Positions 15,203 through 24,556 of a stretch of DNA of 64,000 nucleotides are shown here, one piece after another. The notes under the pieces were generated by a model. That model did not search any database. It had not been told where the DNA came from and saw only the letters and a list, made by a program, of their open reading frames with translations. The stretch's first letter is position 1; each line of letters opens with the position of its first letter. The position numbers were made by a program, and so were the translations under genes. Source of the stretch: a phage. The stretch is taken from sequence record NC_102531.1. The stretch is one strand, 5' to 3'.

Positions 15203-15233
15203 TACAAAAATGCCCCACCCTTTCGGGCAGGGC
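15203..15233 (-). terminator. Intrinsic terminator with GAAA tetraloop (GCCCTGCCC gaaa GGGTGGGGC, then ATTTTTG)
   Basis: 9-bp stem with T-run; the 22-nt hairpin sequence recurs exactly at 25334..25355. Confidence 0.65.
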
Positions 15234-15248
15234 TATGTTAACTAATTG

Positions 15249-16463
15249 TTAAAAAGGGATGTCATCATCAAAGGCGTACTGTGCGGGATTCTGATCCATT
15301 GGGTCATCTTCCTCATCATTTACAGGAGGAGCGTCTACAGTGTTTTGCTGTGGAGCTGCTTCCTGTTTGGCAGCCTGAGGTTCTTGATGGTCAGTTGACC
15401 CAGCACCGTTCTTGATCCAATCGTACAACGGCTCAGCCAGATTAGTCAAGACATCTTTTGCTTCTGCAGTAATTGCCGATGCAAAATCATCAACTTTCGT
15501 TTTCTTGTCAATGCGGCGACAAGCGTTCAACACCGCATTACCGACACTGGCACCTACTTCATCTTCAGTTCGGTTGGTGGCTTGAGCATACTCTTTCTTA
15601 AGCTCAATGGTGACTACGTGCAGTGTTTTAGCCACGCCTAGTGGGTCGTCTACCTTAAACCCGCGATCCAGGATGATCTGCAACGCATTGATGCTGTGCC
15701 CCGTCTCCACACCAATAGGGTCGTAAGAGGATTTACGCTTGCCACCAGAGCCTTGAGTGCCGTTCTCTGCCTTAGGTGGATAGGCTTTGAAACCACTGAT
15801 AATGTTTCCGGTGTCTTTGTCAACAATGGCTGCAACACGACCACCTACCACCAGGTCTTTAAGTTGCTCATCGGTGACAACCATAGCACCTTCGCCAATC
15901 TTGTGATCATTAACAGTAACCACGTTGCCAACAATCTGAGTCACATCGCCATAGATGCGTAAAACGTCCTGATTGGCATTCTGCTGAGGTTTCTGCTTCT
16001 GGCCTTGTGATTGTGCACCTTGCTGCTGAGTCGCTGCTGGAGCCTCTCCTGCACCCAGCTTGACCATCTTAGCCAGTGAGCCTTTGTAATAGGTCTTACC
16101 GTTATGCTCGTTTGCCTTCAAAGGGATATTTACGATCCATCCTGGTGTTACGGTTTCCCACTTGTCATCAATTTTAACAGAGACAGAGTCTTGATGACCC
16201 GGTTTAAGCAGCTTATCGCCCATACTGATCCAAACTTCTTCACCACCTTGAAGCAGGTTATCAGAGGAATCCAGTTCAGAAATCAGTAAAGAGATGGTGT
16301 GGCTGGATTCAATTTTCTTACCTTGCCACACAGTGGTTTTAATACCTGTTGTAGGATCAGCACCTTTGATAGGTTTGATGCTGACACGTTTAATCATGCC
16401 GTGAGCCAGTAAAACAGTTTCACGCGGATTCATCGGGTTAGCGAATTGTTGAATAACGCTCAT
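15249..16463 (-). CDS. Single-stranded DNA-binding protein-like (404 aa) with C-terminal DDDIPF tail
   Basis: C-terminus AQYAFDDDIPF matches the E. coli SSB acidic tip; Gln-rich linker; position in the replication module. Confidence 0.55.
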   Translation of the reverse strand: MSVIQQFANPMNPRETVLLAHGMIKRVSIKPIKGADPTTGIKTTVWQGKKIESSHTISLLISELDSSDNLLQGGEEVWISMGDKLLKPGHQDSVSVKIDDKWETVTPGWIVNIPLKANEHNGKTYYKGSLAKMVKLGAGEAPAATQQQGAQSQGQKQKPQQNANQDVLRIYGDVTQIVGNVVTVNDHKIGEGAMVVTDEQLKDLVVGGRVAAIVDKDTGNIISGFKAYPPKAENGTQGSGGKRKSSYDPIGVETGHSINALQIILDRGFKVDDPLGVAKTLHVVTIELKKEYAQATNRTEDEVGASVGNAVLNACRRIDKKTKVDDFASAITAEAKDVLTNLAEPLYDWIKNGAGSTDHQEPQAAKQEAAPQQNTVDAPPVNDEEDDPMDQNPAQYAFDDDIPF

Positions 16464-16828
16464 TATTTGTCTCCTTGTTCTTCGTTAGTGTTTGCCGTGT
16501 GTGCAAACCCTGCCTGAATTAATTTGTCCTGAACTTGAGCCAACAGGCCCATTGCAAAACTTGTGGTCCCAGAGAGGGCCATCAGCATATCTCGTTGTTG
16601 AGCTACCCAACCTAAGGCATAGTCCAAACGACGATATTTTTCTTCTTCACGCAGAGCCTGAAATAATTGTTCAGCCTCCGGTTGTTGTGTGAGCTCCTGA
16701 AGTCTTCCCATGAAAGAAGAAAGCACCAGCAAAAGAGACACTTGATCTTTACTTAACCCTAAGAAAAATTCTTGAGGTTGTTCTTGCTCGTTCATCGCAA
16801 CCGACGCTTGATCGTTCATTTGTTCCAT
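16463..16828 (-). CDS. Hypothetical protein (121 aa)
   Basis: ORF, 1-nt overlap with the SSB-like gene. Confidence 0.45.
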   Translation of the reverse strand: MEQMNDQASVAMNEQEQPQEFFLGLSKDQVSLLLVLSSFMGRLQELTQQPEAEQLFQALREEEKYRRLDYALGWVAQQRDMLMALSGTTSFAMGLLAQVQDKLIQAGFAHTANTNEEQGDK

Positions 16829-19311: not shown

Positions 19312-19682
19312 TGATCGGTCTCCTTCTTGTTAAGTCTGAATACTGCAATAATAGCATTCCCAAGGTGCAGTGTCAAATCATTTCCAAGATACCACAACAT
19401 TCCACGGTCATCTTTGATGAAAGGGTAACAATCTGGTGCCTTCCAGACATTGTACACTTTCCCGACCTGAAAGAAATCAGGACCTGTTGGGATTTTAGTG
19501 CCAGGCCACACTTGAGATACCTGAACACACTCTACCTGCATAATAACAGGGATAGTCATGGATGTAAATGTTTTTGTTGGTTCTACTACCATAAAAGTCT
19601 CCTCTTTGCTCAACAACACTTCCATGTGTTGATAGTTTACATTAGTGACAATCACCCCAATTACGACCACACAAGTATTCAC
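19308..19682 (-). CDS. Hypothetical protein (124 aa)
   Basis: ORF. Confidence 0.45.
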   Translation of the reverse strand: MNTCVVVIGVIVTNVNYQHMEVLLSKEETFMVVEPTKTFTSMTIPVIMQVECVQVSQVWPGTKIPTGPDFFQVGKVYNVWKAPDCYPFIKDDRGMLWYLGNDLTLHLGNAIIAVFRLNKKETDQ

Positions 19683-22419
19683 CTGTGATCTGGAACGGGA
19701 CTCCCATCATTTTAGAAGCTTGCCAGAAGCAATGCACCACCATTTCACCTACAGGGCTCCAGATAAGTTCAAGCTTTCCGTCATCGTTCAGGATAGGATC
19801 GTACACCGTGTTTCCGTCTCTGTCAACCACTTCGTTTCCGTCCTCATCCTTGCGTGCCTTTTTGTGCTTATGACCGTCGAACACATGAAGTTTGGCCTCC
19901 TGCTCTGCCTTAAATGCTTCCAGTTCTTCAATTGTGTCGAAGGTGTACACAGTCTTATACTTCGGTGTGTCAGGCACTTGAAGCTGATATTCGTCATGGT
20001 AATAGATAATACGACGGACACCTTCATCGTACCACCCACGCTTCACCATTTGGTGGTGCATGAGTATCCCAACCAAGTCACACAACGATGCACCACCATT
20101 TTGTTGGTATGCATTAAGCAAAGAGTGTTTAGAGCGAGTCCAGATGGCATGACCATCAAAAGAGTAGATAAATTTCTTACCTGTTGCTTCCCAGAATTTC
20201 TCCAAGTCCTCTTTACGCCCTTTAAGACCGGGGTTGGCATCCCAAAGCGCATCGATCACCCTTTGTCCCAACTCTGGAGAGATATCCAGCATGTCTGCAA
20301 CTTTATCTTTTTGTGCCCCATACATAACCCCATACGTGATAGGTTTACCGTCGTTACGAGACACCTCTCTGCCTGCTACTTTCGTATATGCCTCAGCATT
20401 GTTTTGGTGTGCGTCCCCGTTACTTACAACATCATAATACAAGCCGTTGTCGAACTCAAAGGCACCCCAAGCCCCGATAAGCTGCTCTAAGTTGGACCCG
20501 TCAATACCGATCTCAAAGTATCCTGGAGGAACACCCCACAGACTACGCATCTCTTTACCCATAACCACTTTAGGAGATGGTTTAGGCATGTTTGCACAAA
20601 TACTGTGTTTCTGTCTGGAAGTGTTTGTTAATCCAGAGCTTTTAGCAGGAAGCTTATGGTCAATCTTCAAACGTGGGTGATTAAGAAGACCAGTATCAAC
20701 CTTATCCTCCTTAATTGGATCAAGGACCGATCTGCGGTTTCGCAATGATAACCACAAGACGATATCTTTAGCCATCTCTCCGTTCAATTTTTCAAGATTC
20801 GGACATAGGTGTCCAAACGTATCTTTCAGTTGCGGAGAAGTAATAAGTGCCCTGGCTTTTCTACGTATTTTCCCGAATACTTCCTTTTTAATCCTCTCGG
20901 AGTTAGGAAAGCTTCGGAACTTGTGCACGGTTGTCTGGAACTTAGCATCAGTTTTGTTCCAGAAGTTGATAATCAGGTCACAATACTCTGACTCTAAAAG
21001 CTCGTCCATATATGCATATACTCGTGCATCAACATCTGCATCAGGTAGAGCTTTCTTCTTGCTGTCTTTAGTTACATCCTTAGTTCTCCACATTGTCGGA
21101 AGCCAACCAGCACTGATCAGGTATCGCTTAATATCGTCCTGATTGCTGATTTTCATAGGTATCTTGCAGTCAGGCATTCGCTTCTGCTGCAGATCGCTTA
21201 TTGCCTGATCCATCAGCTCTTTAGGTAAAGGTTGTGGTGTGGAGGTGCCCTTAATATAACCTCTCAAGAAATCAGCCATCTTGTCTGGGTCTTTGCAGCC
21301 CATCTCTTCACACCATTTTATCCCCATTTTACTGACATCTCCTGTGGAGGTAAATGCTCGCTTAGGTGGGGCTTTGAACTCTAAAGCGCTCATGTCTACA
21401 GGATAACCAAGCTTATCTTTTAACCATTTCCAACCATTATTGGAGATTGTCCCATCTTGGTTAAACGGCTTTTCAGGGAACTTGGGCCGCTGAGACATTG
21501 ACAGCTCTTTTAAAGGTAGTTGTGGTTCAACACGATCAGCTATTTCTTTCATCCACGCATCGCAACGGTCACGTAAAGCAATAGCCCCGTCTATGTCGAA
21601 ATACACACCCTGACGGGCCTGCAGCTCCATCAGGAAGTGCTGCAGCATGCCTCGGCGTAATGCGTTCTTCCAGGTGATCTTCTTGAACCCTTTTGGCTTC
21701 TCTTTGGCAGGATCGTACATAAAGTTCTGCATGTCAGATTTGCCGTAGAATACACCTTTTGATTCCGCTACCAGCTCTTTCCAGAGCAGCTCCTGGATGA
21801 TAACGTCCTCGAATACACGATCCACATACTTCCACAGCGGAAGATCGCGCCAGTCATCAATTTGAACTTTCTGGTTACCAAGAGCGTAGCCCCATGCCAT
21901 AAGGCCGTGAGGACCAACAGGCTGCATTTTCTTAGTAACCGGGTTGAATACAGAGTCCGGACAACCTTTTGGTAAAGGGCGATCAGGCCACAAGATTCGG
22001 CTCATCGCCAACGTATCGAACAGGTTAACCTGGTGGTCGTTGATAGTCCCCATACATTTAGGATCACGGAACATATCAAAATGAATACCGGATAATCTCT
22101 CCATCAGCATAAAGTCATAACTGTAGCAGTTATGGCAGTTCAAAGCTGTTGGTGACCAGTCGGAATTTCCTGTAAGCCAACCTTCCAACTCCGAAAAATC
22201 TGCTATGCGAACTTCAAAATCTTTATAAAGAGTTTTCTTTGCCAGAATAAAGTTCTTAGCCTTCTCTATATCCTCCTCGGAGTAGTGTGTGCGGTCATTT
22301 AGAGGAAGGAACAGCATAAAACGGTTCTTATTCAGCTCTTTAAACAGGCCGCAATGATAATAAAGATCTGGGTCTTCCAGCAAACCGGATGACTCAAAAT
22401 CGAACGACCACATGCTCAT
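19642..22419 (-). CDS. DNA polymerase, family A, T7 gp5-like, with N-terminal 3'-5' exonuclease
   Basis: FDFE exonuclease motif, motif B (KPITYGVMYGAQ), motif C (YYHDEYQ); N- and C-termini (ending NWGDCH) resemble T7 gp5 as recalled; AAGGAGA Shine-Dalgarno. Confidence 0.9.
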   Translation of the reverse strand: MSMWSFDFESSGLLEDPDLYYHCGLFKELNKNRFMLFLPLNDRTHYSEEDIEKAKNFILAKKTLYKDFEVRIADFSELEGWLTGNSDWSPTALNCHNCYSYDFMLMERLSGIHFDMFRDPKCMGTINDHQVNLFDTLAMSRILWPDRPLPKGCPDSVFNPVTKKMQPVGPHGLMAWGYALGNQKVQIDDWRDLPLWKYVDRVFEDVIIQELLWKELVAESKGVFYGKSDMQNFMYDPAKEKPKGFKKITWKNALRRGMLQHFLMELQARQGVYFDIDGAIALRDRCDAWMKEIADRVEPQLPLKELSMSQRPKFPEKPFNQDGTISNNGWKWLKDKLGYPVDMSALEFKAPPKRAFTSTGDVSKMGIKWCEEMGCKDPDKMADFLRGYIKGTSTPQPLPKELMDQAISDLQQKRMPDCKIPMKISNQDDIKRYLISAGWLPTMWRTKDVTKDSKKKALPDADVDARVYAYMDELLESEYCDLIINFWNKTDAKFQTTVHKFRSFPNSERIKKEVFGKIRRKARALITSPQLKDTFGHLCPNLEKLNGEMAKDIVLWLSLRNRRSVLDPIKEDKVDTGLLNHPRLKIDHKLPAKSSGLTNTSRQKHSICANMPKPSPKVVMGKEMRSLWGVPPGYFEIGIDGSNLEQLIGAWGAFEFDNGLYYDVVSNGDAHQNNAEAYTKVAGREVSRNDGKPITYGVMYGAQKDKVADMLDISPELGQRVIDALWDANPGLKGRKEDLEKFWEATGKKFIYSFDGHAIWTRSKHSLLNAYQQNGGASLCDLVGILMHHQMVKRGWYDEGVRRIIYYHDEYQLQVPDTPKYKTVYTFDTIEELEAFKAEQEAKLHVFDGHKHKKARKDEDGNEVVDRDGNTVYDPILNDDGKLELIWSPVGEMVVHCFWQASKMMGVPFQITGEYLCGRNWGDCH

Positions 22420-22477: not shown

Positions 22478-24556
22478 TTAAAAAGGCGTTTCATCGTCCT
22501 CAAAACCAGGAATCTGGTCAGAGGATGGATCATCGTACTGGAGGTCTTCCTGCGTGTCAACAGGCTTAACAGTAGGAGTTACAACCTTATCAGCCACAAC
22601 CTTGCCCATAGGTGTTTCTACAACTGCATGCTCCTGATCCTCAAACATGGCCTGAGGTCTCCAAACAACCTCCCCACCTTCTCCGTCTGTAAACATTTGC
22701 ATTTCTTTGTCCCAGTACCAATTACTGGCATCATGGAACTTACCTGTGTGCGGGTCCATAACTAGAGTGTCAGCAATACCTAAAGTTTTTGCTGGACGGT
22801 TTTTAAGACCTACCAGACGGACACGCCCACGAGAACGATCCACCATTTCTTCGGCCTCGACACCTATGACTACCCAACTCAACTGTTCAAGCCCAGCCGA
22901 TCCTCGCAAATTCTCTTTTCGCACAGGATACCAGAAAGGTAACGGGTTACCATCCTTGTCCTTAGGAGGCACAATCTCTGTACGTTTGAGGTGAGCAATC
23001 ACTAAGATAAACACGTTAAACTGCTTACAAAACGCAGCCAGTTGGGTCATAGCCATGTCCAGTTCTTTTCGCTCATCCTTAACATTAAGACCTGAAATTA
23101 CCATGGACAGGTGATCCAGTACAATATAACGACAATGGTACAGGCAAACCATTTGCTTAAGCTTAGTAATCAACTCGTCCACCGGAATAGATCCGAAATG
23201 TTTGAACACTTTGATTTTTCCAGCTTTTGCCCATGATTGGTGAATCTCTGCGTGTTCTTGATCAGTTAAAAACTGGCTAGGGTCTTCAACAAACTCTTTA
23301 ACATCAAACCCTAACTGGTTTGCATACAAGGAGTTAATTGCTTCCTCTGGGTCCTCCTCAAGATGGATCATGCATAGACGATCATCCTCTTCGTAGTCAT
23401 CGGCCTTCGGACATGTCGGGTCCATTAGGTATCTTGCAATACAGTGTTCCAGTTTTTTAGCTACGGTTGTTTTACCGCCACCTGACGGACCTGTAAGCAT
23501 TACGAGTGTCCCTTTGTGCAAGCCTTTTAGCATTTTTTGCAGTTTTGGGAACTCTGCGCTGATATCTACCCCGTTGGAAGTCTTTTTCCGCAAAGACTCG
23601 ATAGAGAAGTCTTCTAAATCCGACACAGCATCAGGCACATATTTAACAGGGTGCCGAAACATGTTGACAATATCTTCTAGCTTTTTAGCCTTCAGCATGT
23701 CACGGATATCTTTTACACCGTCAGGATCGTTTACCTCACCGGGATATTCTACGTGGTAAACGTTATCAGCCATCAAAAATGCTGCGATATTGTGAGTGGC
23801 CTCAACACCTTTAATGACGTGTTTTTGCTTTTCTACCTCGTTAGCTGCATCGTTATCCATTGCCAGCACAACTGTTCCATAGCTACGGATAAACTTCTCA
23901 TTGTTTGCAAAAGTATCTACTGCGTTTGCACATCCACAGTTAATTCCAACAAAAGGTAGGCAGGGTTTTCCTGCCAGATCACCACCGTTGATAACTGCAT
24001 CGATCCCGTCCTGGACCTCTTTAGCCCACTGCTTGACCTTTGCCGGGGCTTTAGCGTTGGTGAGAATCCCTTTTACCTGTATCTGATATGCAGCTTGCCA
24101 TGCTGCAATAACATCTCCTTCCCCCTCACAGACGTTAATCTGCTTGCGGTTGTTAGAGGATGCACACAGCTTTTGACCAAACATCTGAGAGTTAGCCTTT
24201 ACTATGCCTACTACAGACCAGTGTCCTTTCTGCTCTTTCGGCTTAGACCAATCACGTTTTTTGAAACCAGACAGATTCCCGTAGCGGTCGTAATATGGGA
24301 AATATGTTGCAGTAACTGTCACACCGTCTTCTTGGGACAATGCTGATCGCACACCAAAATATTGTGCAGCCATCAGACCGATATTTTGTTGTGGGACAGG
24401 GACAATTTTAGTATTTTCTAAAACAGTCTCTACAGTTTCAACTTCTTTTTCATCACGATAGTCTCGTTTCACACTTCCCCCACTTTTATACTTAGTTGCT
24501 TTCGGGTTTGGCTCACCGAAACGGTTGTATGCAGATGCCATAAATTTACTTCCCAT
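22478..24556 (-). CDS. Primase-helicase (DnaB-type helicase domain), T7 gp4-like
   Basis: Walker A LTGPSGGGKTT, Walker B-like DHLSM; N-terminal primase-like region; adjacent to the polymerase. Confidence 0.8.
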   Translation of the reverse strand: MGSKFMASAYNRFGEPNPKATKYKSGGSVKRDYRDEKEVETVETVLENTKIVPVPQQNIGLMAAQYFGVRSALSQEDGVTVTATYFPYYDRYGNLSGFKKRDWSKPKEQKGHWSVVGIVKANSQMFGQKLCASSNNRKQINVCEGEGDVIAAWQAAYQIQVKGILTNAKAPAKVKQWAKEVQDGIDAVINGGDLAGKPCLPFVGINCGCANAVDTFANNEKFIRSYGTVVLAMDNDAANEVEKQKHVIKGVEATHNIAAFLMADNVYHVEYPGEVNDPDGVKDIRDMLKAKKLEDIVNMFRHPVKYVPDAVSDLEDFSIESLRKKTSNGVDISAEFPKLQKMLKGLHKGTLVMLTGPSGGGKTTVAKKLEHCIARYLMDPTCPKADDYEEDDRLCMIHLEEDPEEAINSLYANQLGFDVKEFVEDPSQFLTDQEHAEIHQSWAKAGKIKVFKHFGSIPVDELITKLKQMVCLYHCRYIVLDHLSMVISGLNVKDERKELDMAMTQLAAFCKQFNVFILVIAHLKRTEIVPPKDKDGNPLPFWYPVRKENLRGSAGLEQLSWVVIGVEAEEMVDRSRGRVRLVGLKNRPAKTLGIADTLVMDPHTGKFHDASNWYWDKEMQMFTDGEGGEVVWRPQAMFEDQEHAVVETPMGKVVADKVVTPTVKPVDTQEDLQYDDPSSDQIPGFEDDETPF

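Follow-up and report, generated by a model that had tools for sequence, protein, structure and literature searches.

The window analysed here is a stretch of 64,000 nucleotides from the phage sequence record NC_102531.1, which derives from a Vequintavirus, an rV5-like Escherichia coli myovirus. On its minus strand, at positions 15249 to 16463, lies a gene whose product ends in DDDIPF, the last six residues of the E. coli single-stranded DNA (ssDNA)-binding protein (SSB). This SSB-like protein belongs to the protein family PHROG 4477, has an ortholog, Bas52_0087, in Escherichia phage RudolfGeigy (Bas52), and is regarded here as a likely phage SSB of a non-canonical kind. The gene forms a single long open reading frame (ORF) of 404 amino acids (aa) with an ATG start in the ORF listing, and the plus-strand translation of 15249-16463 is full of stops. 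The features of the gene and of its downstream flank are the following, with pLDDT denoting the predicted local distance difference test score of the AlphaFold model.

15249..16463, minus strand: SSB-like gene (Bas52_0087 ortholog, PHROG 4477), stop codon included; from the ORF list, the phrog_4477 match and the identity to Bas52_0087
16050..16463, minus strand: OB1, N-terminal beta-barrel, aa 1-138, predicted SSB/RPA-type OB fold; conserved G22, S54/H55, G82, G108 and G122
15969..16049, minus strand: Gln-rich disordered linker, aa 139-165; pLDDT <50
15777..15968, minus strand: OB2, small five-stranded barrel, aa 166-229, strands 3 and 4 being joined by a short helix
15723..15776, minus strand: disordered Gly/Lys-rich connector, aa 230-247; pLDDT <50 at 233-246
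15408..15722, minus strand: four-helix domain, aa 248-352, best-conserved part of the family; helices 249-266, 274-295, 300-317 and 324-351, pLDDT 85-92
15270..15407, minus strand: disordered acidic Q/P/E/D-rich tail, aa 353-398; pLDDT 29-37
15252..15269, minus strand: C-terminal tip DDDIPF, aa 399-404, the same six residues that end E. coli SSB; P and F in 94% of the family
15203..15233, minus strand: terminator-like hairpin GCCCTGCCC GAAA GGGTGGGGC followed by a T-run, 15 nt past the stop; from the terminator scan and the DrSchubert junction alignment

The protein ends in AQYAFDDDIPF (...DQNPAQYAFDDDIPF / ...DEEDDPMDQNPAQYAFDDDIPF; as a peptide, ...NPAQYAFDDDIPF), and the raw sequence at the 3′ end of the gene, 15269-15249, reads GAT GAT GAC ATC CCT TTT TAA. 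The stop codon thus follows directly on the Phe codon and the tip has a free C-terminal Phe. E. coli SSB itself ends in PPMDFDDDIPF, as tail alignments with PDB entries and matches to the ssb 3′ end indicate, where the free carboxylate of the terminal Phe is a key determinant for partner binding. On uniform residue frequencies the chance of an exact C-terminal 6-mer is 20^-6 by our own arithmetic, or about 1.6e-8, and this figure together with the conservation of the tip across a large family excludes a chance origin. A preliminary description of the window had remarked on the 404-residue protein with its E. coli SSB tip, on a Gln-rich linker and on a length far beyond that of a bacterial SSB. 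The ORF list and the raw sequence bear out the first of these, on the minus strand; the Gln-rich segment lies at aa 143-165 (ATQQQGAQSQGQKQKPQQNANQ) between two folded domains, and the length compares with about 170-195 aa for E. coli SSB and canonical phage or plasmid SSBs. The same description had taken the motif to suggest an enterobacterial-type host. The host being E. coli, this inference happens to be right, but the motif by itself is no ground for it: Vibrio, Aeromonas and Erwinia phages also have SSBs with this tip, which is therefore no mark of enterobacteria. A DDDIPF-type tip is present in most bacterial SSBs.

The domain layout is based on a full-length AlphaFold model built from a 25-sequence alignment (mean pLDDT 71), in which, besides the Gln-rich linker between folded domains, the Q/P/E/D-rich C-terminal 50 aa (355-404, pLDDT <50) are disordered as well. 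An OB-fold prediction for the N-terminal region, which the preliminary description had proposed as a check, was carried out with a favourable outcome: bacterial SSBs are the best structural matches of the predicted OB fold, and the top neighbours, among them PriB, RPA, Stn1, RecO and MCM, are overwhelmingly ssDNA binders. When the full-length model was searched, the same PDB chains aligned over just 61-66 residues at about 2 Å. From this we infer that the alignments fall on the 62-residue middle domain, modelled at aa 167-228 with the strand order b1-b2-b3-short helix-b4-b5, and that this domain is a second, minimal OB, in line with the two OB folds counted in the preprint on Bas52_0087 cited below. 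The arrangement of a folded core, a disordered acidic linker and a terminal DDDIPF mirrors that of bacterial SSBs and is counted in favour of a phage SSB. Searches with the four-helix domain gave no informative structural neighbour and no relative of known function. Foldseek comparisons against viral structures yielded significant matches only within the protein's own uncharacterised family; those to SSB, LEF-3 and DUF2815 were weak and not significant.

At the sequence level the sole library match is phrog_4477, annotated as "unknown function" (E 3.9e-174, residues 1-404 against profile positions 1-393 of 393). The protein has no Pfam match at threshold; the only hit at E up to 1, DCX2 at E 0.21, is far below threshold and was judged noise. 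NCBIfam gave no match. PDB sequences, queried by single sequence as well as by profile, returned nothing significant: sub-threshold chance matches to a salivary D7 protein, Mediator and a sorting nexin, which were set aside, and beyond these only tail matches to E. coli SSB constructs. Nor is the wider family tied to the canonical SSBs by such models, as PF00436 is matched by 0 of 67 diverse members, which show only scattered single chance Pfam hits, and the NCBIfam SSB models pick up nothing but the tails of homologs, at scores far under their cut-offs. When OB1 or OB2 was compared with two canonical phage SSBs by hhalign, the probability was below 1%, the canonical profile being thin, and there was no signal for OB1 against OB2 or for the helical domain against the OB domains and canonical SSB. 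With hhalign thus silent, neither an internal duplication nor a remote homology to PF00436 is demonstrable. By sequence, then, the protein is a member of PHROG 4477 and an ortholog of Bas52_0087, and is not a member of PF00436/TIGR00621.

Searching 1.84 billion representative proteins with a profile returned 231 clusters of the family, and conservation was assessed on 139 full-length representatives that are mutually at most 50% identical. The family core consists of OB1, the helical domain and the tail, in all about 270-300 aa. OB2 occurs in only 38 of the 139 representatives, and is for this reason considered a lineage-specific insertion. The Gln-rich linker differs in length among orthologs, that of Bas52 being longer by four residues (KQQQ). 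P403 and F404 are common to 94% of the representatives, with a PF ending in 109 of the 139, and the net charge of the last 15 residues has a median of -6. The ending PPMDFDDDIPF, the same 11 residues as in E. coli SSB, is shared by many members; elsewhere the endings vary and include DDSIPF, CDDIPF, EDVPF, DDLPF and even PW or DF. Outside the tip, conservation is highest at G22, H55 and G108 of OB1 and, within the four-helix domain, at two motifs of small residues, D248-x2-G251-x3-G255-H-A-x-N259 and G304-A-x2-G308-x-A310, with D248 conserved in 84% of the family.

The DNA of the gene is 95-97.5% identical to 115 phage records, almost all of them Vequintavirus, and in every one the gene is labelled "hypothetical protein". 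The characterised copy is Bas52_0087 (QXV84166.1), which is the same gene at the same genome position, with 98% aa identity (401/408) and the same FDDDIPF end; the window protein differs from it by the 4-aa indel in the Gln-rich linker and by three substitutions, of which two lie in the tail. A preprint (bioRxiv 10.64898/2026.04.29.721553, April 2026) reads Bas52_0087 as SSB-like, a call also given by Phold and AF2: it predicts two OB folds, reports the C-terminus as disordered and notes the resemblance of the C-tip to that of E. coli. In the same work two Bas52 mutants that escape the reverse-transcriptase defence DRT10 (UG17) mapped only to Bas52_0087, as the missense changes D252V and Y351C, at a site called a putative oligomerisation interface (bioRxiv 10.64898/2026.04.29.721553). 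Wild-type Bas52_0087 supplied in trans strengthens DRT10 restriction, and overexpression of the host exonuclease SbcB (ExoI) weakens the defence; triggering of DRT10 during infection has been shown for Bas52 only (bioRxiv 10.64898/2026.04.29.721553). The window protein, with the same interpretation, has therefore already been described in the 2026 preprint and is not new. Three points go beyond the preprint: that the four-helix domain is a conserved unit of its own, how widespread the family is, and the alleles with post-tip extensions treated below.

The two escape positions can be placed on the domain layout given here. D252 of Bas52 corresponds to D248 of the window protein and Y351 to Y347 in the last helix; both residues are present, and both fall within the helical domain. 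This location, together with the GxxxG-type motifs, fits a role in helix packing or self-association, so that the modelled four-helix domain is probably a self-association module. The subfamilies restricted by DRT10, Vequintavirinae and Stephanstirmvirinae, are the two that carry the PHROG 4477 family.

The position of the gene in the genome adds to the argument. It lies about 3 kb downstream of the genes for a polymerase and a primase-helicase, with a PIF1-type helicase further upstream, and its place after the polymerase, right behind a small ORF, is kept in Vequintavirus, Mydovirus, Phapecoctavirus and phi92. The neighbours considered are the following.

16463..16828, minus strand: upstream 121-aa ORF, phrog_7310; its stop overlaps the start of the SSB-like gene (TAATG), with GGAG 8-11 nt upstream; no Pfam hit
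19642-22419, same strand as the SSB-like gene: polymerase, 925 aa, weakly Pol A-like (31.8 bits against a Pfam cut-off of 34.3)
22478-24556, same strand as the SSB-like gene: DnaB-type primase-helicase, with a DnaB_C match

In phi92 the polymerase is annotated as 'similar to DNA polymerase from T7-like phages'. The full annotation of Bas52 lists a polymerase, primase-helicase, helicase, ligase, exonucleases and endonuclease VII and holds no other SSB; a tblastn search that used two canonical phage SSBs as queries found only the tail of the SSB-like gene. A T7-like replisome needs an SSB and none other was found, which leaves this protein as the only SSB candidate. The SSB call of the preliminary description thereby gains support from the replication-module position, from the lack of another SSB in Bas52 and from the same reading in the independent preprint on Bas52_0087. 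Given the TAATG overlap with GGAG in place, the 121-aa ORF and the SSB-like gene are probably translationally coupled, and the product of the small ORF may act as a partner protein. Mydovirus, Phapecoctavirus and phi92 likewise have a small ORF at this upstream position. The window ORF has no sequence similarity to its phAPEC8-like (Phapecoctavirus) counterpart, phrog_16560, for which reason homology between the two was rejected and the ORF is regarded as a conserved positional neighbour only.

The likeness to known SSBs is one of plan, combined with clear differences. E. coli SSB and the canonical phage and plasmid SSBs (PF00436; for example P1 Ssb and mEpX2 SSB) likewise have an OB core (predicted here), a disordered linker and a terminal DDDIPF, and phage-encoded SSBs that retain the host tip are common. 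The window protein differs from them in carrying two different OB domains per chain and a four-helix domain that canonical SSBs lack. Two OBs per chain are also found in the Thermus/Deinococcus-type SSB, a homodimer; however, the OBs of the window protein are not detectably related to each other, OB2 is absent from 101 of the 139 representatives, and there is a separate helical domain. A further parallel is offered by T7 gp2.5, a phage-specific, non-canonical OB-fold SSB whose acidic tail, ending in Phe, docks on a Pol A polymerase and a DnaB-family primase-helicase, a replisome type to which the weakly Pol A-like polymerase and the DnaB-type primase-helicase of the window phage would correspond.

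Not all members of the family expose the tip. Nineteen of 202 family proteins run about 15 residues past ...IPF in a conserved sequence (APIGLQYGRSKIYAL, APVGLQYARHAIYAI, APIGLPYGRNFIHCI) with the consensus A-P-[IV]-G-L-Q-Y-x4-I-[HY]-[AC]-[LIM]. In phage DrSchubert (MZ501060.1) the ORF reads ...CDDIPF-APVGLQYGKSRIHAL*, the stop codon being replaced and 15 residues gained. The gene for a 207-aa endonuclease (phrog_1035, endonuclease VII/HNH-like) begins inside this extension (cassette at L008:2525-3168), and past its stop the sequence rejoins that of the window just before the terminator hairpin. Such a cassette of about 650 bp, inserted exactly after the Phe codon, was found in 52 records, 32 of them full length and including the type phage rV5, and it is present in about a third of Vequintavirus genomes. 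Of the BASEL phages, DrSchubert, EmilHeitz and MaxBurger carry the cassette, and RudolfGeigy, CarlMeissner and JeffSchatz are without it. In phi92 a putative site-specific endonuclease (gp155) comes after gp156, which is extended in the same way. The cassette is not in the window, which carries an uninterrupted, uncapped allele whose empty site lies after the Phe codon (15252) and before the hairpin (15233); the terminator scan places this GC-rich hairpin and its T-run at 15233-15212. Cassette-free alleles show the uninterrupted site ...GACATCCCTTTTTAA....

The same post-tip peptide also ends proteins without a downstream endonuclease, namely those of KpS11 (L004:3001-4218), the mEpX2 SSB (L009:1078-1584) and the Valp1 SSB (L010:994-1581). 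The protein of Klebsiella phage KpS11 is a PHROG 4477 family member, and those of the lambdoid mEpX2 and the Vibrio phage Valp1 are canonical SSBs of unrelated temperate phages; across these the variant is DDDIPF-AP[IV]xL[QP][YF]...I[HY][AC][LIM]. The view of the extension as a mere by-product of homing insertion was accordingly rejected as a full explanation, and the peptide is better seen as a conserved element in its own right. That the 15 residues form a functional module, be it a tip cap, an alternative docking peptide or a degradation signal, is a speculative proposal that we hold with little confidence. If it were true, near-isogenic Vequintaviruses with and without the cassette would differ in the access of their SSB to the host partner network, and perhaps in DRT10-type sensing. 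The junction string DIPFAP was not found in any paper searched.

Taken with the modelled fold, these observations make it fairly probable that the window protein is a non-canonical phage SSB of the phage's own, replicative type, with OB1 and OB2 on ssDNA, a helical domain for self-association and a tail that presents DDDIPF to partners. The binding of ssDNA, the oligomerisation and the identity of the tip's partners are what we infer. The N-terminal OB fold would bind ssDNA, assisted in the rV5-like subgroup by the inserted second mini-OB, while the conserved four-helix domain would keep subunits together and the long acidic disordered tail would display the C-terminal DDDIPF as a docking peptide. 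Being identical to that of the host, the tip could give the protein access, on phage ssDNA, to the network of host SSB partners (ExoI/SbcB, chi, PriA, RecQ and others); it might dock as well onto the Pol A-type polymerase and the DnaB-type primase-helicase that the phage itself encodes. The DRT10 reverse-transcriptase defence would then sense the activity of the protein on ssDNA during infection. Hijacking of host factors by the tail is plausible, though the tail may equally well bind the T7-like polymerase or helicase of the phage. Host SSB partners for the tip are favoured by the identity with the host tip, by the dosage effect of SbcB, a known SSB-tip partner, and by a nucleotide match in a related genus. 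In the homolog from Phapecoctavirus vB_EcoM_REC the last 39 nt (EPPMDFDDDIPF*; L002:3445-3483) are about 90% identical to the ssb 3′ end in 5,416 of 5,426 E. coli genomes, which suggests that the tail-coding segment has been exchanged with canonical ssb genes. The tail nucleotides of the window gave no match in the 5,426 E. coli genomes, and there is accordingly no evidence of a recent host capture for the window allele.

Several observations count against the interpretation as a replicative SSB that works through its tip. Outside the tail, Pfam, PDB, NCBIfam and hhalign do not connect the protein by sequence with any SSB family, and the 'SSB' labels that GenBank gives to a few distant homologs probably rest on tail-only matches to SSB PHROGs or NCBIfam models. 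Expression of Bas52_0087 alone neither harms E. coli nor triggers DRT10 (bioRxiv 10.64898/2026.04.29.721553), and its harmlessness argues against a strong titration of host SSB partners. Moreover, in at least 32 Vequintavirus records, rV5 among them, the tip is followed by 15 more residues. From the existence of such buried-tip alleles it follows that either a free tip is not strictly required for the viability of a Vequintavirus or the extension has a function of its own.

Three other explanations were weighed. The protein may be a replicative SSB whose tail serves the phage's own polymerase and helicase, as in T7 gp2.5 and T4 gp32, the identity with the host tip then reflecting shared ancestry or exchange of tail segments and not hijacking. 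This possibility, which does not exclude the one preferred here, is the less probable of the two and still deserves some weight: the phage has a T7-like set of a Pol A-like polymerase and a DnaB-family primase-helicase, an acidic tail with an aromatic end is the hallmark of the family while the exact acidic residues vary, and expression alone is not toxic to E. coli. It accounts less well for the full host-like PPMDFDDDIPF kept by many members, for the Phapecoctavirus 39-nt identity, which suggests selection for a host-type sequence, and for the SbcB dosage effect of the preprint, which points to a host partner. Alternatively, the protein could act mainly as a decoy or anti-host factor, its copied tip sequestering or displacing host SSB partners (for example ExoI, RecJ, RecQ or UDG) from phage DNA, with the protection of phage intermediates as its chief task in place of a part in replication. 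A tip identical to that of the host would suit such a role, which is nevertheless improbable given the lack of toxicity on expression in E. coli, the universal conservation of the gene in the replication module of these phages with no other SSB, and the natural masked-tip alleles; in addition, only missense escapers were recovered (just two mutants), as fits an essential gene.

Least credible is that the protein does not bind ssDNA at all and that its barrels bind a protein or another ligand, as in an adaptor or scaffold (for example a recombination mediator or replisome organiser) with an SSB-like tail. We consider this very unlikely, because the top structural neighbours are overwhelmingly ssDNA binders (SSB, PriB, RPA, Stn1, RecO and MCM), the tail and tip are otherwise specific to SSBs, and the phage is without any other SSB.

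Regarded as an SSB, the protein touches on several broader matters. Bacterial immunity is increasingly found to be triggered by phage SSBs (for example Retron-Eco8, Hna, AbpAB and now DRT10), and the SSB tip is the hub of the host network for ssDNA processing, a hub peptide that is here carried by a structurally distinct and widespread phage family. The assignment helps to annotate the missing SSB of rV5-, phi92- and phAPEC8-like phages and gives a handle on whether phages recruit host SSB partners or compete for them. As a discovery it adds little to the preprint, which holds the same protein and the same reading; the addition lies in the post-tip cassette alleles. Literature searches on rV5 with SSB and on DDDIPF with phage found nothing specific, and a paper on Retron Eco2 proved not to be about the SSB-like gene.

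Some further observations concern the variability of these phages and their records. Between 16 and 21 records that bear the name 'Campylobacter phage' (host C. jejuni) match E. coli Vequintaviruses at 95-97% identity over the SSB-like gene, and their host labels look doubtful. In Bas52 the coding sequence (CDS) of the DNA polymerase is joined from 2 pieces and that of the large terminase from 3 (L001:5769-8822, L005:683-2817); from these split CDSs, and from several homing endonucleases annotated elsewhere, genomes of this type appear to be rich in mobile insertions. Orthologs that are at least 96% identical overall (P0001-P0008, L001) vary just before IPF, with AFDDDIPF, SFDDDIPF, EFDDSIPF and DFCDDIPF, a hotspot that may stem from co-conversion around the endonuclease insertion site or from selection on recognition by partners or defences.

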